64,000 bases of DNA from the NCBI GenBank assembly GCA_031409715.1, contig JANNXU010000084.1, forward strand, positions 63,704 through 127,703, written 5' to 3'. The notes beneath the pieces were generated by a model. The model saw nothing but the letters and a program-made list of their open reading frames with translations, was not told where the DNA came from and did no database searches. The stretch is from Gemmatimonadaceae bacterium (lineage in GTDB: Bacteria > Gemmatimonadota > Gemmatimonadetes > Gemmatimonadales > Gemmatimonadaceae). The position numbers and the translations under genes are program-made. Shown here in pieces: positions 15,895 to 63,981 of this stretch (the stretch's first letter is position 1; each line of letters begins with the position of its first letter).

Positions 15895-15900
15895 ATTCTA
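15895..15900 (-). promoter_or_regulatory. Putative -10 box TAGAAT, 7 nt upstream of the ATG (leaderless candidate)
   Basis: The minus strand reads CTAGAAT-tccctgc-ATG. There is no Shine-Dalgarno sequence. Confidence 0.45.
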
Positions 15901-27226: not shown

Positions 27227-27240
27227 GGACCGTTCGGTCC
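27227..27240. promoter_or_regulatory. 14-bp palindrome GGACCGTTCGGTCC (distal copy of the putative TetR operator)
   Basis: The palindrome is perfect and is followed by TAGTGA. It has the same half-sites as the copy at 27352. Confidence 0.5.
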
Positions 27241-27351
27241 TAGTGAAATGCTGAAAAGTTCGTGGTCGAAAGGTCGTCCTGGTTGCTGCTTGCCGCGTAA
27301 GTCATTCTCTTGCAATGACTTGCGCGGCTTTTCCGTTCGGGGTTGCGTATT

Positions 27352-27371
27352 GGACCGAGCGGTCCTAGTTT
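27352..27371 (+). promoter_or_regulatory. Palindrome GGACCGAGCGGTCC abutting the putative -10 box TAGTTT of tetR
   Basis: GGACCGAGCGGTCC (27352-27365) is followed by TAGTTT (27366-27371), 7 nt, then GTG 27379. Confidence 0.55.
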
Positions 27372-30440: not shown

Positions 30441-30530
30441 CGGGCGACCGCGTGCACTGGGCGGCGGCGCGCCATTTCCCCGTGTGGAGCTGCCCGCCGG
30501 TGGAGGCCCGACGCGCGCCGGGCCGCACTC

Positions 30531-30697
30531 GTGGACTGGAAACGAAGTTCGGGAAAGCAGTCGCCGGTCGGAGCATCCCGGCTGGCTGCGTTGAACATCC
30601 TCGCAATACCGCGGGTATTGCTGTGGTTTTCGCCTTCCCATCCGGGCGCCCCACCCGGCTTGATGCTCTCCGAACTTCATTTCCAATCCACTAGATT
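30531..30697 (+). promoter_or_regulatory. ispH upstream element: 22-bp inverted repeat (2 mismatches) ending in CAC-TAGATT
   Basis: GTGGACTGGAAACGAAGTTCGG starts at 30531, and CCGAACTTCATTTCCAATCCAC lies at 30670-30691. TAGATT (30692-30697) is 6 nt from ATG 30704. The right half is 27/33 identical to the pyp upstream region. Confidence 0.55.
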
Positions 30698-30703
30698 ACG
30701 AGG

Positions 30704-31924
30704 ATGTCAGTCACCGACGAAGAGACGTACTACCGGAAGGGGTTCGGCCTCAAGGCCGACGTACAGGACACCCTCGCCGACGATTACACCGGCCGCCTGG
30801 TGGACGTGTTGCGGGCCAGCGAGTACACGGTCACCTCTGGGGACGTGACGGTGCGCCTCGCCAAGGAGTTCGGCTTCTGCTACGGCGTGGAGCGGGCCGT
30901 CGAGTACGCCTACCAGACGCGCCGGAAGTTTCCGGACCGCCGCGTCTTTCTGGCTGGCGAGATCATCCACAACCCGCACGTGAATCACAAGCTGCGGGAG
31001 ATGGACATCACCTTCCTGCAGTCGAAGGGGACCGGGTTCGACTACGACCTCGTCCAGCCGGACGACGTGGTGATCCTGCCGGCATTCGGCGTGACGATTC
31101 AGGACTTCGAGACGCTGCGCGCACTGGGCTGCATCATGGTGGACACCACCTGCGGCTCGGTGCTGAACGTCTGGAAGCGGGTCGAGAAGTACGCGCGTGA
31201 CGGCTTCACGTCGCTGATCCATGGCAAGCACTATCACGAGGAGACGCGCGCGACCGCCAGCCAGGTGCAGAAGTATCCCGAGGGGCGCTATCTGGTGGTG
31301 CGCGACATGTCGGAGGCGCGGCTCGTCTGCGACTTCATCGAGGGCCGGTGGGACCGGGCGAGTTTCCTCGAGAAGTTCGCGGCTGACCGCGCCTCGCCCG
31401 GTTTCGACCCCGACCTGCACCTGCGACGGATCGGTGTGGCCAACCAGACGACGATGCTGGCGCGTGAGTCGCTGGCGATCGGCGAAGAGGTGGGGCAGGC
31501 GATGGCGCGAGCGCACGGCGCTGCGGCTCGCGAGGCGAACTTCCGCACCTTCGACACCATCTGCTCCGCCACGCAGGACCGTCAGGATGCCGTGGAGGAG
31601 CTGCTGCAGGAGCCGCTGGACGTGATGCTGGTGGTGGGCGGGTACAACTCGAGCAACACGATCTCGCTGGCGGCGATCTGCGCCGACAAGGTGACCACCT
31701 ACCACGTGGAGGATGCCGAGGGCATCGATCCGGTGGCGGGTGTGGTGCGGTACCGGCCCATCGGGCTGCACGTGGAGGAGGCGACGCGCACCGGCTGGAT
31801 GCCGGCGACGGGGCCGGTTCGGGTCGGAATCACGGCGGGCGCGAGCACGCCGAACAACAAGATCGGCGAGGCTGTGGCGCGCATCTTCCAGACGCGGGGC
31901 ATCGACCCGGCGCAGATCGGGTGA
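30704..31924 (+). CDS. ispH: 4-hydroxy-3-methylbut-2-enyl diphosphate reductase (long form)
   Basis: FGFCYGVERAVEYAY, GEIIHNPHV and later conserved Cys/His regions are typical of IspH/LytB. Length is 406 aa. Confidence 0.9.
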   Translation: MSVTDEETYYRKGFGLKADVQDTLADDYTGRLVDVLRASEYTVTSGDVTVRLAKEFGFCYGVERAVEYAYQTRRKFPDRRVFLAGEIIHNPHVNHKLREMDITFLQSKGTGFDYDLVQPDDVVILPAFGVTIQDFETLRALGCIMVDTTCGSVLNVWKRVEKYARDGFTSLIHGKHYHEETRATASQVQKYPEGRYLVVRDMSEARLVCDFIEGRWDRASFLEKFAADRASPGFDPDLHLRRIGVANQTTMLARESLAIGEEVGQAMARAHGAAAREANFRTFDTICSATQDRQDAVEELLQEPLDVMLVVGGYNSSNTISLAAICADKVTTYHVEDAEGIDPVAGVVRYRPIGLHVEEATRTGWMPATGPVRVGITAGASTPNNKIGEAVARIFQTRGIDPAQIG

Positions 31925-49892: not shown

Positions 49893-52800
49893 TCAATGAA
49901 AGTCATGACTCCGCGCATGCTCCGCCCCCAGCTGTGCATCCAGCGGCACGAACAGCCGCCCCTTCACCGTCACCACGTTCGACTCCACCTGCAGCGTGCC
50001 CCGCACCAGCAGCAGCGGTGACGTGCTGATCTTCAGCGCATCACGCTCGAATCGCTGCGGCGTGACGACGACGTTCACAATGCCGGTCTCGTCCTCCAGC
50101 GAGAGGAAGACGAAGCCCTTCGCAGTGCCGGGCCGCTGCCGGCAGATCACCAGGCCGGCCACCGCCACCTGCTCGGTGTCGCGGCCGTTCCGCTGGAGGT
50201 CGCGCGCGGTGCGGATGCCGTTCGGCTGCAGCAGCGGCCGCAGATGTCGCATGGGATGCCCGTTCAGCGACAGCCCCGTCACGCGATAGTCCGCCTCGGT
50301 CAGCTCGGCCATCGACATGTGCGGTAGCGCGGCGTCGGGCAGTATTACCGATGGGGCAAGCGGCCCCGCGTCGCCACGCACGGCGGCCAGCACCTCCCAC
50401 AGCGCGCGGCGCCGGCGCGTGGCCAGCGGCTCCTGCGCGAACATCCCGTCGAACGCCCCCGACTCCGCCAGCAGTCGCAGTGCACGCCGATCGAGCCGCG
50501 TGCGCCGCACCACGTCACTCACGTCGCTGAACGGCCCCTCGGTGAGCGCCGCCTCGAGCTTGCCACGCGCCGCCGCGCCCAGCCCGCGCACACTGCGTAC
50601 GCCAAGCCGCACCGCCGGTGCGCTGGACTGCGGCCGGCGCAGCTCGAGCGTCGCGTCCCACGCCGAACGGGTGAGGTCCACGGAGCGCACCTCCACGCCG
50701 TGTCGCACACCGTCCTCGATCAGCGTGCCCGGCGCGTAGAACCCCATCGGCTGCGCATTCAGCATCGCCGCCAGGAACTCGGCATGGTAGTAATGCCGCA
50801 GCCACGCCGACGCGTAGACCAGCAGCGCGAAACTGGCGGCGTGGCTCTCGGGAAAGCCGTAGTCGGCGAAGGCGTTGATCTGCGCGAAGATGCGGTTGGC
50901 GATGTCGTCGTCGATGCCGTTGGCGCGCATCCCGGCGAGCATCTTCTGGCGCAGCGCCTCCATCTTCTCGTGGCTGCGCTTGTGTCCCATCGCGCGGCGC
51001 AGTGCATCGGCCTCGCCGGCGGTGAAGCCGGCACAGGCGATCGCGACCTGCATGCCCTGCTCCTGGAAGAGCGGCACACCGAGTGTGCGCTTGAGGATCG
51101 GCTCCAGTGACGGGTGCGGGTAGATCACCTCCTCGGTGCCGGCCCGGCGGCGCAGGTAGGGGTGCACCATCGCGCCCTGAATCGGCCCGGGGCGGATGAG
51201 TGCGACCTCGACGACGAGGTCGTAGAAGCAGCGCGGCTTGAGGCGCGGCAGCGTGTTCATCTGCGCTCGACTCTCCACCTGAAACACGCCGATGGTATCG
51301 GCCGCACAGAGGTCGTCGTAGACCGCCTGGTCGCTGGTATCGAGCAGCGCGAGATCGATGCTCACGCCGCGCGTCTGCCGCACGTATACGAGGCAGTCCT
51401 GCAGCACGGTGAGAATGCCGAGTCCGAGCAGGTCGATCTTCACCAGGCCGGCGGCATCGAGATCGTCGCGTTCCCACTGGATGACGGTGCGCCCCGGCAT
51501 GGAGGCGGGCTCGATGGGCACGACGGTGGAGAGGGGCTCGCGCGTGAGCACGAAGCCGCCGACATGGATGGAGCGATGACGCGGCAGTTGGTGCAGACCG
51601 TCGACGATGTCGGCGAGGGCACGCACACGCGGATCGGCGGGATCGAGGCCGGCGCGCTGCAGCAGGTCGGTGGGGAGTGTGCGCTCCTGCTTCGCGCCGA
51701 AGCCGGTGGTGGGCGCGGTGGCGGATGGTGGCGTCATCACCGGCGTGCCCGGTGTGGAGGCGTCCATCGCGCCGCGTTCGACGGCGGTGGTGCGGCGGGT
51801 GCGCGCCTTGGGGATGGCGGCGAGGCGCTCATCACGTTCGAACCGCTTGCGCAGTTCGGGGCGTCCGCCGGTGCCGTCGCCATGCATGCCGTCGAACCCA
51901 TCCACGTCGGCGGAGGCGGTGCGGATGGACGGGCGGTGCACGGTGAGCGGCACTGGTGCATCATCGGTGCCGTTGGTGTTGGCGGTGGTGTTGGTGTTGG
52001 TGTTGGCGGTGGTGTTGGTGTTGGCGGTGGTGTTGGTGTTGGCGGTGGCGTCGGCGGTTGCGGTCGCGCTGGCGAGGGCGCGCTTGGCCATGTCGCGCCG
52101 GATGTGCGGGCGATCGGTGTCGGGGACGTCGGCGCGGTGCACGGGGCCGGTGCCGTTCACGGTGTTCGGCGTGGCATCGACGAATGCCACGCGACGAAGA
52201 TCATCGGCGGTGCCGTTGCCGATGCCGGCGCGCAGTGCGGCGGCGGTGCTGCGCGCGCTGAAGCGGTCGCTGACGGCGGCCAGCGCATCGCCCTGCTCCA
52301 CCGAAAATCCGAGCACGCGTGCCGCGTCTCGCACCGCGCTGCGACCGCGGTAGGTGATCTGCTCGCAGACCATCGCGGCGTGCTCGCGGCCGTAGCGTTC
52401 GTACACGTACTGCAGCACGCGCTCGCGATCGCGGTGGGCGAAGTCGATGTCGATGTCAGGCGGTTCGCGGCGGTCCTCGCTGAGGAATCGCTCGAAGAGC
52501 AGTTCCATGCGGATGGGATCGACGGCGGTGATGCCGAGGCAGTAGCAGACGGCGGAGTTGGCGGCGGAGCCGCGACCCTGGCAGAGGATGCCCTCGCGCC
52601 GCGAGAAGCGGACGATGTCCCACACGATCAGGAAGTAGCCGGCCATGTCGAGGCGGCGAATGACGGCCAGTTCGTGCGCCAGCTGCCGCGCCTGTGCGGG
52701 GGTGCGGGTGGAGCCCCAGCGTTCCGTGGCGCCGGTCTCGACGAGCTGCGCGAGATAGTCGTCCTCGCTCACGCCGGGCGGCAGCGGAAATCGCGGCAGC

Positions 52801-53621
52801 GACGGCTTGATCTGCCCGATGCGGAACTGGCAGCGTTCGGCGATGGCGCGGGTGGCCCGCAGGCCCGCCTCGTGTCCCAGCCAGCGCTTGTGATGCAGGG
52901 CGGTGGACTTGAGGTACCACTCGCCGTTGGGCCGCAGGCGCGTGCCCATCGCGTCGAGCGGGCGGCCGTGGCGCAGGGCGGTGAGGGCGTCGTGGGTGGT
53001 GCGACCCTGCCGCGTGGCGTAGTGCACGTCGTTCGTGACGACCCACGGCACGCCGATGCGCCGCGCCAGCGGGATGAGCTGCCGCACCAGCGCATGCTCT
53101 TCGGGGAGGCGGTGATCCCAGACCTCGATCGCGAACGATTCGGCGAAGAGATCGCGCATCACGCCGGCCACGCGCGCGGCCTCGGTGGCGTTGCCGGCGG
53201 CGAGCGCCTGCGGGATCGCGCCACGCGGGCAGCCGCTGAGCGCGAACAGCCCACCGGCATGCTGCGCGAGCAGCGCGAACGACACCGACGGTGCCCCACG
53301 CTCGGCGGCGTCCATGCGGGCGCGCGTGAGCAGCGTGCCGAGGTTGCCGTAGCCCGTGCGCGACATGGCGAGCAGCGTGAGGTGCTGCAGGGCGCCATCG
53401 GATTGCACCGTGAGTTCGGCGCCGATGATGCCCGCGATGCCGGCGGTGTCGCAGGCCTGCGCGAAGCGCACGGCGCCACCGAGTTCATCGTGGTCGGTGA
53501 GTGCGAGGGCGGGCTGTCCGGCGATGAGTGCACGGGCGACGAGTTCTTCCGGTGCCGACGCGCCATCGAGCAGCGAGAAGGCGCTGTGGCAGTGCAGCTC
53601 GACGTAATCGGCGGCGGTCAC
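49893..53621 (-). CDS. dnaE2: Error-prone DNA polymerase III alpha subunit DnaE2 (ImuC)
   Basis: The PHP N-terminus is YVELHCHSAFSLLDGAS, and similarity to polymerase III alpha runs through the protein. The start is GTG. At 1242 aa it is longer than usual because of a low-complexity insert. Confidence 0.93.
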   Translation of the reverse strand: MTAADYVELHCHSAFSLLDGASAPEELVARALIAGQPALALTDHDELGGAVRFAQACDTAGIAGIIGAELTVQSDGALQHLTLLAMSRTGYGNLGTLLTRARMDAAERGAPSVSFALLAQHAGGLFALSGCPRGAIPQALAAGNATEAARVAGVMRDLFAESFAIEVWDHRLPEEHALVRQLIPLARRIGVPWVVTNDVHYATRQGRTTHDALTALRHGRPLDAMGTRLRPNGEWYLKSTALHHKRWLGHEAGLRATRAIAERCQFRIGQIKPSLPRFPLPPGVSEDDYLAQLVETGATERWGSTRTPAQARQLAHELAVIRRLDMAGYFLIVWDIVRFSRREGILCQGRGSAANSAVCYCLGITAVDPIRMELLFERFLSEDRREPPDIDIDFAHRDRERVLQYVYERYGREHAAMVCEQITYRGRSAVRDAARVLGFSVEQGDALAAVSDRFSARSTAAALRAGIGNGTADDLRRVAFVDATPNTVNGTGPVHRADVPDTDRPHIRRDMAKRALASATATADATANTNTTANTNTTANTNTNTTANTNGTDDAPVPLTVHRPSIRTASADVDGFDGMHGDGTGGRPELRKRFERDERLAAIPKARTRRTTAVERGAMDASTPGTPVMTPPSATAPTTGFGAKQERTLPTDLLQRAGLDPADPRVRALADIVDGLHQLPRHRSIHVGGFVLTREPLSTVVPIEPASMPGRTVIQWERDDLDAAGLVKIDLLGLGILTVLQDCLVYVRQTRGVSIDLALLDTSDQAVYDDLCAADTIGVFQVESRAQMNTLPRLKPRCFYDLVVEVALIRPGPIQGAMVHPYLRRRAGTEEVIYPHPSLEPILKRTLGVPLFQEQGMQVAIACAGFTAGEADALRRAMGHKRSHEKMEALRQKMLAGMRANGIDDDIANRIFAQINAFADYGFPESHAASFALLVYASAWLRHYYHAEFLAAMLNAQPMGFYAPGTLIEDGVRHGVEVRSVDLTRSAWDATLELRRPQSSAPAVRLGVRSVRGLGAAARGKLEAALTEGPFSDVSDVVRRTRLDRRALRLLAESGAFDGMFAQEPLATRRRRALWEVLAAVRGDAGPLAPSVILPDAALPHMSMAELTEADYRVTGLSLNGHPMRHLRPLLQPNGIRTARDLQRNGRDTEQVAVAGLVICRQRPGTAKGFVFLSLEDETGIVNVVVTPQRFERDALKISTSPLLLVRGTLQVESNVVTVKGRLFVPLDAQLGAEHARSHDFH
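51972..52048. repeat. In-frame 18-nt tandem repeat inside dnaE2 (coding strand ACCGCCAACACCAACACC; TANTNT peptide repeats)
   Basis: The plus strand reads GTTGGTGTTGGCGGTGGT... and the encoded peptide is ATANTNTTANTNTTANTNTNTTANTNG. Confidence 0.9.
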
Positions 53622-53644
53622 GCGACACCGCCAGCGCGAGTGGA

Positions 53645-53718
53645 GTGGACATGAAGTTGGGGCAGCACAAAGCCGGCTGGCGACTGCACCCCGAACTTCG
53701 TTTCCACGTCACTAGATT
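53645..53718 (+). promoter_or_regulatory. pyp upstream element: imperfect inverted repeat ending in CAC-TAGATT, homologous to the ispH element
   Basis: GTGGACATGAAGTTGGGG lies at 53645-53662 and CCCCGAACTTCGTTTCCAC at 53689-53707. TAGATT (53713-53718) is 7 nt from ATG 53726. Confidence 0.55.
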
Positions 53719-53725
53719 GCGCGGC

Positions 53726-54166
53726 ATGGAGACCCCGGACACCCCACGCACGGACCTGCAGCGACTGACTCCGGCGTCGCACGAGGCGCTGAAGGCCGAG
53801 ATCCTCTCGACGGCCGACACGATGTCGGGCGAGGAGCTGGACACGCTGCCGTACGGCATGATCCAGCTGGACGCGACGGGGCGCATCCTCAAGTACAACG
53901 CCGTCGAGAGTCGCCTCGCGCAGCTGCCGCAGGAGACGACGATCGGCAAGAAATTCTTCAGCGAAATCGCACCGTGCACGAAGGTCCAGCAGTTCTACGG
54001 GCAGTTCAAGGACGGGGTGCTGCGCGAGTCGCTGGACACGACCTTCTCCTTCCACTTCGCGTTCAAGCAGAACCCGCGTGACGTGACGGTGCGGCTGTTC
54101 TACAGCAAGCGGACGCGGAGTGTGTGGGTGATGATCTCGGACCGGGAAGGGAACCCGATCGGGTAG
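53726..54166 (+). CDS. pyp: Photoactive yellow protein homolog (PAS-fold blue-light photoreceptor)
   Basis: It aligns with H. halophila PYP recalled from memory: GMIQLDATGRILKYNAVE versus GAIQLDGDGNILQYNAAE, and IGKKFFSEIAPCT versus IGKNFFKDVAPCT. Tyr42, Glu46 and Cys69 equivalents are present. Length is 146 aa. Confidence 0.88.
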   Translation: METPDTPRTDLQRLTPASHEALKAEILSTADTMSGEELDTLPYGMIQLDATGRILKYNAVESRLAQLPQETTIGKKFFSEIAPCTKVQQFYGQFKDGVLRESLDTTFSFHFAFKQNPRDVTVRLFYSKRTRSVWVMISDREGNPIG

Positions 54167-54208
54167 CTCGGCGTGGCGTGACTGCTGCTGCTCCGACAGC
54201 AACTGCCA

Positions 54209-54586
54209 CTGCAACGGCAACGGCGGAAACGCAAAACTGGACAGCCGCAAAACGGCACTGTTGCAAAACGGCAACGGCAACGGCCACCGCGATTTTATCG
54301 CAGAACGGCACAGCCGCAGAACGGCACAACCGCAGAACGGCAACAGCCACCGAACAGCAAGGGCTTTGCGAACTGCAGTTGCCGTTGCAGTTCCTCCAGC
54401 ATTTTCGATGCATCGTGTTTCGCAGACACTGAATGCCCGCACGAATGCCGTGCCGTTCTGCGGTTGTGCCGTTCTGCGATAAAATCGCTGTGGCCGTTGC
54501 TGTTGCTGTCGCCGTTGCCGTTTTGCAACAATGCCGTTTTGCGGTTGTGCAGTTTTGCGTTTCCGCCGTTGCAGTTGCAGTTGCAG
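54209..54586. repeat. Large imperfect palindrome (arms of about 133 bp, centre of about 110 bp)
   Basis: The left arm is 54209-54341 and the right arm 54452-54586, about 90 percent complementary by eye. Arms contain GCAGAACGGCACARCC repeats, (AACGGC)n and (GCAGTT)n. The degenerate symmetry extends to both gene ends. Confidence 0.9.
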
Positions 54587-54637
54587 TTGCAGTCGCAGTT
54601 GCAGTCGCCGTCGCTGTTGCCGTGACCGTTGCCCGGG

Positions 54638-56413
54638 TCAGTCATACCAGCCCTGCAGGTGCCAGGTGTCGGACTCGTGGTAGACGAGCAGGGTGCCGAC
54701 TTCGCGGGTGTGGAGGTGCCAGTAGTCGCGGGCGAAGGGGGTGCGCCACCAGGCGCCGGTGAGGCGTTCGGGGCCGGTGGTGTCGAGGATGGTGAAGGTG
54801 TGTGACTGCCAGACGCCGGCGAGGGGGCGGTAGTCGCCGTCGCAGGTGATGCGGACCGGCTGCGGCGGGGTCAGCAGGCGGAGGGCGGCGGGGGTGGCGG
54901 TGCGGTCGCCGGCGAAGAGGGGGAGCCATTCGCCGAGGTGGGTGGTGAGGGCGTGATCGTCGCTGCGGGGGGCGACGGCGTTCTGCGCGACGGTGCGGGC
55001 GGCGGCGACGGCGGCATCGTCGCCGTCCACCAGCTCCGCCCAGGCGCCGCACCGTTCGGCGCGGTGATCGTCGCGCAGCACCGGGCGCATGACGCAGTCG
55101 GGGCCGAGGGTGCTGCGGAGGCGCTCGAGGGCGGCGAGGGCGGCGCCCGGGTCGCGCCAGCCGGCGTCGAGCAGGTCGCCCTGCTCGCCGGTGGCGGGGA
55201 GGGTATTGGTGAGCGTGACCGTGACGCCGCAGATCGGCGCGACCAGGGGCCAGTCGGCGAGGAGGGCGCGGCAGCGTTCGAAGAGCGGGGCGACGCGGGC
55301 GAGGGGATGCGCCGGCCGCACCTCGCGGGTGACGGTGTCGTGCGGGGCACCGTCGCGCGGGGCGGGGCGCAGCGCCGGCCGTGAGACCGGGCGCCCGTCG
55401 GCGGCGCCGGTGTCGGCCCGCTCCGGCCCTGCGTCCAGGCCCGCATCCTCCCGCGGCACACCATCCAGGTGCAGGGTGATGGAGACCGCGGCGGCCGCCA
55501 GCCCGTCCCGCACCAGATCGCGGACGAGGGTCTCCAGCGCCGCGCGCACCAGAAAGAGCGCTGGCTCCATGGTGTCACTGGCCCCGCCCAGCTCCGCCGT
55601 GACACTGCGCTGCGCCTCGAGGCGGGCGAGGACGGGGCGGCGCGGGTCCTCGCCATGGGCCAGCCGCCAGGCACCGAGGCCCGTCTCACCCCAGCGCCGC
55701 TCGATGTCCGCCACCGGCAGCGCCGCGAAGCCGCCCACCGTGCGGATCCCCAGTGCCTCGAGCGCGGCCACCAGCTCCTCGTCCAGCGGCAGGAACCCCA
55801 GCGGGAGCGGGGCAAGGAAGGCGGCATCGCCCGTGGAGGGGATGCAGACCGCCCGCTCGCAGTCCGCCGGGAGGGCATGCCAGGTGGCGGCACGGGCGGC
55901 GGCGCAGGAGTCGGCGACGGCCACGCGGGCCAGCGGATGCCAGCGCTGGGCGAGCCCCAGCAGGGTGCGGGCGAGGCGCCGCTCCCCCCCGATGGCGTCG
56001 AACCCCGTGGCGCCCACCCACCAGGTCCCGTTGACCGCCCCGGCCGGGGAGACGTGCGGGCTGGCCTGGATCAGCGCCGCCGTGGCGCGGGTGAGGGCCC
56101 CCGCGATCGCGATCTCGTCCCACGGCAGCACCTCCAGCCGGCTGCAGCGGGCCTTTGCCTCGGGAACGGTCATCCCCGCCCGCACCCGGGCCTTCCCCGC
56201 AGCAGCCGTTACCGCCCGAAGCCGAGTGCCGTCGGCAAGGGCGAGGAGCCGCTCATCCCAGTGCTTCCCCGGGTCGGCCGCAGGTGGTGCGCTGGCCGGC
56301 TCGCTGGTCTCCAGCCCCAGCCCGAGCTGCCGCGGCCCCTGGCTGGCGCGCCAGACGGCACCAACCGGGAACCGCGGGATCCGGACACAGGCAACGCGCC
56401 AGAGAGCAGACAT
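54638..56413 (-). CDS. imuB: ImuB, Y-family-polymerase-like component of the imuB-dnaE2 mutagenesis cassette
   Basis: The N-terminus is MSALWRVACVRIPRFPVGAV with ...RAGMTVPEAKARC...VADSCAAARAA.... It has Y-family palm-like organisation and lies next to dnaE2. The start is at ATG 56411-56413. Confidence 0.85.
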   Translation of the reverse strand: MSALWRVACVRIPRFPVGAVWRASQGPRQLGLGLETSEPASAPPAADPGKHWDERLLALADGTRLRAVTAAAGKARVRAGMTVPEAKARCSRLEVLPWDEIAIAGALTRATAALIQASPHVSPAGAVNGTWWVGATGFDAIGGERRLARTLLGLAQRWHPLARVAVADSCAAARAATWHALPADCERAVCIPSTGDAAFLAPLPLGFLPLDEELVAALEALGIRTVGGFAALPVADIERRWGETGLGAWRLAHGEDPRRPVLARLEAQRSVTAELGGASDTMEPALFLVRAALETLVRDLVRDGLAAAAVSITLHLDGVPREDAGLDAGPERADTGAADGRPVSRPALRPAPRDGAPHDTVTREVRPAHPLARVAPLFERCRALLADWPLVAPICGVTVTLTNTLPATGEQGDLLDAGWRDPGAALAALERLRSTLGPDCVMRPVLRDDHRAERCGAWAELVDGDDAAVAAARTVAQNAVAPRSDDHALTTHLGEWLPLFAGDRTATPAALRLLTPPQPVRITCDGDYRPLAGVWQSHTFTILDTTGPERLTGAWWRTPFARDYWHLHTREVGTLLVYHESDTWHLQGWYD

Positions 56414-56670
56414 GGGACAGGTGGCACGCGATGGCGTGGAAGCGTGAAATCGATGACAGGGGAGGGTGGGAGAGGGAGCATACCGAAGAAACACCGAAGC
56501 GCAAGGAAGGCGACAGTGCTGGCGCGACCGCCCTCGCAGACGGTGACGGGCAAAGCCGCCACACACGAAAATGTGACCTTCTCAATTGTTGCGCTCGCTC
56601 GGCAGGTCGTGCGAAAAATCGCGGGACGAAGGCATCAATGGCTGTGTTCGCTTTATGGGCCAGGAAAGGC

Positions 56671-63309: not shown

Positions 63310-63981
63310 ATGATCTCGGGCCTCTTCGCTTTCATCGGCATCGGCTTCCTGATCGGCTTCCGGCACGCCTTCGAGCCCGATCACCTCGCGGCGGTGAGCA
63401 TGCTGGCGACGCGAGAACGCGGCTGGCTGACCTCGGCCCGGCTTGGGCTGGCCTGGGGTGCCGGTCACACCGGCAGCGTCGCGATCGTCGCCCTGCTGAT
63501 CATCGTGCTCGGCATCCGCGTGCCGGAGTCGATGTTCGCGATGTTCGAACTGCTGGTCGCGGCGATGCTCATCATCCTCGGCGTCAGCACGCTCGTCACC
63601 GAGGCGCGCCGCCACCGCCGGGTGCTCGGCGACGCCCATGCGCACGCCCATCACGACCATGTGGCACACGCGCATCCGGAGCGGATCCGCAACGTCCGCG
63701 GTGCGTTCGGCTTCGGTATTGCACACGGGCTGGCGGGCAGCGGTGCCGTGATCGTGCTGCTGGTCGCTGCGGCCACCTCGGTGCGGGAGCAGTTCACCTA
63801 CCTGCTGGCCTTCGGTCTCGGTACGGTGGGTGGGATGTGCGTCGTGTCGCTGGTGGTGAGCGGAATGGCCGGGTTGGCGGTCTCGCGCAGCAAGCACTGG
63901 GCGATGAGCATTCGTGTGCTTGCCGCGACGACCAGCATGGTGGTCGGGATGATGCTCGGCTGGTCAGTGCTGACGTCGTGA
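63310..63981 (+). CDS. NicO-family (RcnA/UreH-like) nickel/cobalt transporter
   Basis: The signature is HAFEPDHLAA and the His-rich loop is HAHAHHDHVAHAH, with six hydrophobic segments. The start is moved to ATG 63310. Confidence 0.82.
   Translation: MISGLFAFIGIGFLIGFRHAFEPDHLAAVSMLATRERGWLTSARLGLAWGAGHTGSVAIVALLIIVLGIRVPESMFAMFELLVAAMLIILGVSTLVTEARRHRRVLGDAHAHAHHDHVAHAHPERIRNVRGAFGFGIAHGLAGSGAVIVLLVAAATSVREQFTYLLAFGLGTVGGMCVVSLVVSGMAGLAVSRSKHWAMSIRVLAATTSMVVGMMLGWSVLTS

Follow-up and report, generated by a model that had tools for sequence, protein, structure and literature searches.

A probable mobile repeat of the MITE type behind the sequence shared upstream of pyp and ispH in a Gemmatimonadaceae genome

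The DNA analyzed here, called the window throughout, is the whole 64,000-nt stretch at positions 63,704 to 127,703 (forward strand) of contig JANNXU010000084.1 from a Gemmatimonadaceae bacterium. Two of its genes, pyp and ispH, share a sequence immediately upstream of their start codons, and this report concerns the origin of that sequence. Both gene identities proposed in an earlier note on this DNA are correct. All top solved-structure matches of the pyp product are photoactive yellow protein (PYP; E = 1.6e-23), the counterparts of Tyr42, Glu46, and Cys69 are retained, and its homologs carry the JGI label "photoactive yellow protein." Similarly, the IspH homologs, most of them 405 to 406 amino acids (aa) long at 100% coverage, all have PF02401. 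The identities of the neighbors DnaE2 and ImuB-like were also confirmed; the N terminus of DnaE2 aligns with those of relatives (…DYVELHCHSAFSLLDGAS), and its orthologs carry Pfam PHP and DNA_pol3_alpha. The features of the two sites are listed below, with loci outside the window denoted by L and a number.

30528..30694, minus strand: full-length copy of the repeat upstream of ispH, 167 nt including the end tetranucleotides CTCG and CTAG; the better-folding strand is the minus strand.
30528..30552: gene-distal terminal inverted repeat of the ispH copy, CTCGTGGACTGGAAACGAAGTTCGG, starting with a degenerate CTAG (CTCG); repeat I1, 25 nt, 88% complementary.
30603..30621: central hairpin of the ispH copy, GCAATACC-GCG-GGTATTGC, forming the fold-back tip and found in all full-length copies.
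30670..30694: gene-proximal terminal inverted repeat of the ispH copy, CCGAACTTCATTTCCAATCCACTAG, with a perfect CTAG at its end.
30692..30697, plus strand: TAGATT, the gene's own -10-like hexamer at ispH, 6 nt ahead of the ATG and overlapping the element's CTAG.
30704..31924, plus strand: ispH, 406 aa, LYTB family, with a start codon backed by homologs.
49893..53621, minus strand: dnaE2, error-prone DNA polymerase III alpha, with 15 nt separating its GTG start from the element's distal CGAG.
53637..53715, plus strand: internally deleted copy of the repeat, 79 nt including the CGAG and CTAG ends, between the divergent dnaE2 and pyp starts.
53713..53718, plus strand: TAGATT, the gene's own -10-like hexamer at pyp, 7 nt ahead of the ATG; the empty site in L036 reads ggCTAGATTtcccggcATG.
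53726..54166, plus strand: pyp, photoactive yellow protein, 146 aa.

Rereading the sequence reproduced the similarity as it had been reported. The segments at 53689-53721 upstream of pyp (CCCCGAACTTCGTTTCCACGTCACTAGATTGCG) and at 30668-30700 upstream of ispH (CTCCGAACTTCATTTCCAATCCACTAGATTACG) are identical at 27 of 33 positions, the match ends 4 nt ahead of the pyp ATG (53726) and 3 nt ahead of the ispH ATG (30704), and inverted copies start at 53645 and 30531, respectively. When the 16-mer core CCGAACTTCRTTTCCA was searched with up to three mismatches, five matches were found in the window compared to 0.34 expected, and none of 100 shuffles reached five; four of these matches are the four arms of the two inverted repeats. 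A repeat finder reported arms of 25 nt with 88% complementarity at ispH and of 29 nt with 76% complementarity at pyp. The arms are separated by 26 nt at pyp and by about 116 nt at ispH, an approximately fourfold difference.

Both upstream regions proved to be copies of one repeat and are thus homologous, as the earlier note had claimed. The element is noncoding and about 165 nt long (163 to 167 nt in full-length copies and 79 to 80 nt in deleted forms). Its left arm reads CTAGTGGAnTGGAAATGAAGTTSGG and its right arm CCGAACTTCGTTTCCAnnCCACTAG, the terminal inverted repeats being about 25 nt long. The conserved interior includes the hairpin GCAATACC-NNN-GGTATTGC followed by GAGGATTTCCAACG. With a profile made from the six full copies, nhmmer located the ispH copy at 30531-30694 (E = 3e-50), and this copy aligns with five copies from metagenome-assembled genomes (MAGs) at a mean column identity of 87%; the profile E values of full copies are 1e-50 to 1e-53. 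The pyp copy was found by matches to both ends of the profile. No third copy was detected in the window by a profile built from full-length copies, which agrees with the earlier statement. The 116-nt "spacer" at ispH is the interior of the full-length element in the reverse orientation, and opposite ends of the element face pyp and ispH. The idea that the pyp version is a shortened ispH version also held: it matches the ends of the full-length L007 copy at 71 of 78 positions, across a single 87-nt gap that corresponds to an internal deletion and has GCCGG at both edges. Less of the claim about CCGGCTGGC could be kept. The string is present between the arms at both loci, but the two positions are not homologous because the ispH copy has the opposite internal orientation; the strings look alike because the element is an imperfect palindrome. 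Finally, the last 7 to 9 bases of the 27/33 match (TAGATTRCG) lie outside the repeat and are the genes' own upstream sequence.

A scan with the arm core CCGAACTTCRTTTCCANNNCAC of one genome per species from 185,579 species gave 13 matches compared to an estimated 9 or so by chance, and seven of them were in Gemmatimonadota MAGs. Four contigs of the Gemmatimonadaceae MAG VAR_34_metabat_498 and one each of VAR_78 and OTE_88 (Gemmatimonadaceae) account for six; the remaining one is in a Longimicrobiales chromosome, inside a gene, and looks like chance. Five of the seven are the right-hand end of a complete ~165-nt element (four in one MAG and one in a second). In OTE_88 there is a lone arm, CCGAACTTCATTTCCACTCCAC (L004, 2873-2894), with no partner arm within 220 nt, probably the remnant of a decayed or deleted copy. 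No match came from a first metagenome scan, which combined the subterminal block with the arm across a variable gap; a second one with the arm pattern gave 16 loci, of which only contig L019 carries a family member; the rest are chance matches in unrelated sequence. The L019 copy is a short form of about 80 nt, derived from a different sequence subtype than the pyp copy, the six full copies falling into two subtypes. Plasmid and phage collections yielded no match to the element. Small size, lack of transposase coding, terminal inverted repeats, dispersed copies, and filled and empty sites mark the element as a probable miniature inverted-repeat transposable element (MITE). Literature searches on MITEs in Gemmatimonadetes and on MITEs together with leaderless genes found no description of such a repeat family in Gemmatimonadetes, and the family is apparently undescribed.

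The copies adjoin unrelated genes. Those at pyp and ispH are 23 kb apart. Elsewhere, the L007 copy is flanked by thiolase and hexapeptide transferase genes, the L002 copy adjoins a diacylglycerol kinase gene, and the L019 copy lies beside genes for a LOG-family protein and a phosphodiesterase. In L007, the element spans the entire stop-to-start gap between same-strand genes, probably inside an operon; its CTAG is the thiolase stop codon, and the opposite end overlaps with the GTG that starts the following gene. The short form in L019 sits between divergent genes with TAGAAT at one end, and in L002 the CTAG end is 23 to 53 nt ahead of the diacylglycerol kinase open reading frame (ORF). Each of eight copies has exactly one perfect CTAG, and it is the one that doubles as the start of a -10 box or as a stop codon; the other end has one or two mismatches (CTCG, CGAG, CTGG, and others).

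The relatives fetched at the two loci lack the element. Among 23 orthologous loci (L030 to L052) examined with the element profile, no copy was found anywhere, at either gene (PYP 82 to 92% identical; IspH 89 to 91% identical where syntenic). At ispH, the gene order is kept (TetR, ECF sigma factor, sometimes an ABATE/zf-CGNR gene, NTPase_I-T, ispH, GDSL lipase), and the gap in front of ispH compares as follows.

L030 to L034: IspH 91% identical; NTPase-ispH gap of 9 nt; gggCTAGATTtccaccATG before the ATG.
L049 to L052: IspH 91% identical; NTPase-ispH gap of 9 nt; gagTAGATTcacgacATG before the ATG.
L035: IspH 89% identical; NTPase-ispH gap of 39 nt; ggaTAGATTgcggcATG before the ATG.
Window: NTPase-ispH gap of 263 nt; element, then CTAGATTacgaggATG before the ATG.

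All three element-free syntenic ispH lineages (L031, L050, and L035) have TAGATT 5 to 6 nt ahead of the ATG. L048 (IspH 91% identical) is also without the element, in a different upstream context that is uninformative on the target site; at about 1380-1500, upstream of ispH, there is no NTPase gene, and direct repeats of gaccatggggtcagacaccatggtgga there could represent either another repeat or a rearrangement of this hotspot. At pyp, every relative fetched (L036 to L047) keeps the order dnaE2 (-), pyp (+), imuB-like (-). The best comparison is L036 (PYP 88% identical), where the whole 29-nt dnaE2-pyp gap is CAT-gcgcgggccacccggCTAGATTtcccggc-ATG and holds CTAGATT 7 nt ahead of the ATG, compared to CAC-gcgacaccgccagcgCGAG-element-CTAGATTgcgcggc-ATG in the window. 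Both left flanks are equally long, at 15 nt and a CTAG-like tetramer, and the position of the element coincides with the CTAG, making L036 a precise empty site with one CTAG. Other element-free relatives have TATGTT 7 nt ahead of the ATG (L042 and L043 to L047, PYP 92% and 89% identical) or TAGATT followed by a 35-nt leader (L037 to L041, PYP 82 to 85% identical). That leader holds a hairpin, GAACGGG…CCCGTTC, whereas the window and L036 are of the leaderless type, which suggests that pyp has changed between leadered and leaderless forms within the family. Since TAGATT precedes the ATG in most of the element-free relatives, it is each gene's own -10-like box and not part of the repeat; the empty sites mean that both insertions are recent and specific to the window's lineage.

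These distributions bear on the function proposed in the earlier note, in which the arms serve as the operator of a dimeric transcription factor controlling pyp and ispH together, e.g., in a light response linking a photoreceptor to carotenoid-precursor supply. The geometry is suggestive, with arms at about -12 to -80 from both starts and the same arm beside a -10-like box in both genes. MITE ends exapted as binding sites are also known, for example the IHF site in a Correia element that regulates mtrCDE (PMC10969869). However, the note itself had named two observations that would speak against an operator, a lack of conservation upstream of orthologs and copies at unrelated genes, and both were made. 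First, the arms are absent from every pyp ortholog fetched (four lineages, 6 distinct contigs) and from every syntenic ispH ortholog (three lineages). Second, the genome scan did not trace out a coherent regulon: in other genomes the same arms stand beside the unrelated thiolase/hexapeptide transferase, diacylglycerol kinase, and LOG/phosphodiesterase genes, in one case between same-strand genes. In addition, the arm spacing differs about fourfold between the two genes, the elements are in opposite orientations, and no candidate regulator was identified. An operator for co-regulation is accordingly very improbable, and a light regulon joining pyp to the methylerythritol phosphate pathway, for which there is no evidence, is a false lead. 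The arm also holds GAACTTCGTTTC, one base off GAAC-N4-GTTC, and the pyp copy is 15 nt upstream of the dnaE2 start, as if it were a LexA-type SOS operator tied to the dnaE2/imuB-like mutagenesis genes. Against this, relatives keep dnaE2 beside pyp without the element, the window and three relatives share a conserved block ahead of the imuB-like gene (CTGTCGCCTTCCTTG…TTCGGTGTTTGTTCGGTAAC) that is unlike the arm, and the other copies are not at SOS genes; we consider a LexA operator close to excluded.

The position of the copies relative to start codons is better understood from the distribution of CTAG. The window has only 9 CTAG sites compared to 184 expected from base composition, an approximately 20-fold underrepresentation in a lineage of 69% G+C; palindromic tetramers of the same composition are far more frequent (GATC 509, CATG 267, and GTAC 166). 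Five of the nine CTAG sites begin a TAGnnT hexamer 0 to 7 nt ahead of a real ORF start, including those of ispH and pyp, two are stop codons, and two were given no call. CTAG is thus mostly confined to -10 boxes and stop codons, and therefore an element that targets CTAG is likely to land a few bases before a start codon. Two of the sites, at 27228-27243 and 27353-27368, are each preceded by the palindrome GACCGnnCGGTC upstream of a TetR-family gene, and the second is followed as TAGTTT, 7 nt, and GTG; the pair looks like candidate TetR operators overlapping leaderless-type -10 boxes.

In leaderless transcripts, as in Actinobacteria and Deinococcus, the -10 box lies about 7 nt ahead of the start codon. 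In the relatives' loci, a TAnnnT starting at -15 to -11 was found at 14 of 43 called gene starts compared to 0.27 expected (P = 1e-20), and some of these starts also carry a canonical TTGACA or TTGACC about 17 nt upstream. Leaderless-type examples include called starts in L031, L035, L036, L037, and L038 and those at 15898, 23584, and 27365 of the window (TAnnnT 5 to 8 nt ahead). About a third of called starts are of this kind, and leaderless-type promoters thus appear widespread in this clade of Gemmatimonadaceae; a literature search on Gemmatimonas and leaderless genes found no paper on leaderless promoter architecture in this clade. The same enrichment indicates that pyp and ispH are probably leaderless, so that the element is upstream DNA, as the earlier note had supposed. 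A scan of both upstream regions with the sigma-70 consensus gave no promoter of the TTGACA-17-TATAAT type. The arms match TTGACA at the -35 position at only two of six bases. Because neither the arms nor the empty sites have a -35 consensus, the element neither clearly supplies nor removes one.

Each full copy folds as a single long hairpin. The ispH copy folds at -80.4 kcal/mol (z = -4.7), and even the shortened pyp copy forms a hairpin of -42.7 kcal/mol (z = -3.2). A consensus structure computed on the alignment of the six full copies has 66 pairs with 92.9% of cells paired, helix 1 contributing 30 pairs (92% of cells). Compensatory changes occur at 11 of the 66 pairs, and six of these pairs belong to the interior helix and not to the terminal repeats; when partners were slid by 1 to 3 columns, 0 to 2 compensatory pairs remained, and none of 500 shuffles reached the observed values. 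Because the six copies represent two subtypes, the number of independent covariation events is small. One strand folds better than the other by 7 to 25 kcal/mol in every full copy, and the consensus fold has -91.3 kcal/mol and 66 pairs compared to -59.4 kcal/mol and 58 pairs on the complement. A census of strand-neutral G·T versus A·C mismatches, in which the left half of each copy was aligned to the reverse complement of its right half, was symmetric (29 versus 33) with a poorly aligned interior, and folding each strand separately replaced it. The direction of the gene is clear at window ispH, L007, and L002, and at all three read-through would yield the weaker-folding strand; read-through thus does not account for the strand asymmetry.

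The covariation and the constant strand preference are what would be expected if the element were mainly a structured RNA (a multicopy small RNA gene or a cis hairpin) or a strand-specific single-stranded DNA element. Pairing would then be the selected property, mobility would be secondary, and the element would affect neighboring genes through termination or insulation, through cleavage by RNase III, or in antisense. Two further details fit: the central hairpin, followed by TGTGGTTTTC on the weaker strand, is flagged as weakly terminator-like on the plus strand at ispH, and the L007 copy, lying between same-strand genes of what is probably one operon, should be transcribed. However, the strand that read-through would make is the weaker one, and the covariation comes from only two subtypes. 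Rfam gave no match at the gathering score for the whole window and none for the element at E values up to 1. Leaderless pyp and ispH mRNAs would not contain the element, and derivatives that have lost the interior persist (pyp and L019). A primarily RNA or single-stranded DNA element therefore seems improbable, and it would add to a MITE explanation rather than be a true alternative, Correia and ERIC elements being both mobile and RNA active. An RNA leader for pyp and ispH is unlikely, because a -10-like box stands between the element and the ATG.

We therefore favor, with good confidence, the explanation that the sequence shared by pyp and ispH is the end of a small, nonautonomous, MITE-like mobile repeat of Gemmatimonadaceae joined to each gene's own promoter box. 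Insertion would occur at CTAG, either in the manner of IS630 (TA within CTAG, with TA duplicated) or in the manner of IS5-type elements, which duplicate 4 bp of the target. The rarity of CTAG would steer insertions to the -10-like hexamer (cTAGnnT) 5 to 7 nt ahead of leaderless starts or to TAG stop codons. A full-length copy would have entered at ispH in one orientation, and an independent insertion at pyp in the opposite orientation would have been shortened, later or concurrently, by the 87-nt deletion between GCCGG repeats. Both genes would have kept TAGATT and the start codon, the DNA upstream of the box being replaced by the terminal repeat. This would explain both the identity at 27 of 33 bases and the end of the match 3 to 4 nt before the ATG. 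The nonfunctional duplicate CTAG would then decay under genome-wide CTAG avoidance. The promoters would probably keep working from the retained -10 box alone, because box and start are intact and neither arms nor empty sites have a -35 consensus. Any common effect on expression would be a by-product of the insertions and not a designed regulon.

Several points weigh against this explanation or limit its details. First, about nine copies of the family are known in all, and the evidence for mobility consists only of presence/absence and multiplicity of copies. Second, neither an autonomous parent or transposase with matching ends nor any long element of this kind was found in the window or the fetched loci. 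Third, the transposase-mediated mechanism and the target duplication are our inference. The ends read C-TA-[GTGG…CCAC]-TA-G, and the pyp filled site is C-GA-GTGG…TCAC-TA-G compared to CTAG in the empty site. A TA (2-bp) and a CTAG (4-bp) duplication are equally compatible with this, as is a nonduplicated target, since the palindromic CTAG could equally be the outermost part of the inverted repeat. Fourth, the ispH site is not simply a clean empty site plus the element, since in the window an extra stretch of about 87 nt, missing from relatives, separates the element from the NTPase stop. The left flank there (CCGGGCCGCACTCG) resembles the sequence ahead of the target in L031 (CCGGGCCGGGCTAG), but this alignment does not bring the NTPase stop codons together, and high G+C content could have produced the match by chance. 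Fifth, "leaderless" and "promoter retained" are readings of the sequence. Finally, the interior covariation and strand bias exceed what end recognition by a transposase needs and hint at a function as single-stranded nucleic acid. One way to accommodate this last point, which we regard as unlikely, is a fold-back module with pairing selected on one strand (RNA or single-stranded DNA) that homes to the CTAG of leaderless -10 boxes and acts as a mobile insulator, terminator, or promoter-context cassette. If that were true, the cassette could put unrelated leaderless genes, such as those for a photoreceptor and an essential isoprenoid enzyme, under a common influence.

Some features of the pyp neighborhood deserve mention in their own right. 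The pyp gene (53726-54166, plus strand) is nested on the opposite strand between the imuB-like gene (54638 to about 56413, minus strand) and dnaE2 (49893-53621, minus strand) in the region 49893-56566. The imuB-dnaE2 pair is normally a contiguous SOS-mutagenesis cassette, and a blue-light receptor gene antisense to its presumed transcript is unusual; this placement could link light to damage tolerance. Ahead of the imuB-like gene, the window, L036, L037, and L038 share the conserved block CTGTCGCCTTCCTTGCGCTTCGGTGTTTCTTCGGTATG (56479-56516, minus strand), a putative promoter or operator that could be the SOS box of the clade. It falls inside the 642-aa longest-ORF call of the imuB-like gene, and the gene therefore probably begins further downstream, close to MSALWRV. 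The sequences at 51971-52074 and 54299-54629 contain tandem repeats with periods of 6 to 24 nt. The array within the dnaE2 coding sequence is (GTTGGT)n and encodes a low-complexity TNTNTTANTN insert, and others lie in the spacer between pyp and the imuB-like gene, which is 472 nt long in the window compared to 35 to 290 nt in relatives.

With the mobile repeat as the favored explanation, what looked like a regulon would be the product of two independent insertions of one element. This may reflect a general rule, in which high-G+C, CTAG-avoiding genomes with leaderless mRNAs funnel CTAG- or TA-targeting elements to start codons; such insertions can give rise to "promoters" that resemble one another and pass for regulons in motif searches. 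The analysis also provides sequence-level evidence for common leaderless-type promoters (TAnnnT 5 to 7 nt ahead of the start) in Gemmatimonadaceae.

The element can be compared with three known systems. IS630 inserts at TA, which is duplicated, with a preference for TA inside 5'-CTAG-3' (PMC2170065, citing Tenzen and Ohtsubo 1991), and the C-TA and TA-G junctions at our repeat's ends would be compatible with an IS630/Tc1-mariner MITE. No IS630-type transposase gene with these ends was found in the window or the fetched loci, and membership in this group is a lead. Correia elements (CREE) of Neisseria are about 105 to 155 bp long with terminal inverted repeats of about 26 bp, insert at TA, typically occupy positions directly upstream of genes, and influence promoters (PMC2649163, PMC10969869). 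Like them, the repeat is small, noncoding, and multicopy, has inverted repeats and both full-length and internally deleted classes, and sits just upstream of genes. There is no sequence similarity, however, and the host belongs to another phylum. In Correia elements, the element end together with the flank forms or modifies a promoter, and hairpins form upon transcription (PMC2649163, PMC10969869), whereas here the -10 box is the gene's own, predates the insertion, and is not supplied by the element. Our repeat also differs in being an imperfect palindrome, with covariation, over its whole length and not just at the ends, and it is known from sequence alone. The ERIC/IRU elements of enterobacteria are imperfect palindromes of about 127 bp that are intergenic, often transcribed, and variable in copy number between lineages (PMC10969869, PMC2229807). 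They resemble our repeat in folding over the whole length and in having size variants, which in ERIC arise by internal deletions or insertions. They differ in sequence and are not reported to be aimed at -10 boxes, whereas the association of our repeat with CTAG and start codons is striking. The element is thus an apparently undescribed family of the Correia/ERIC-like MITE kind.

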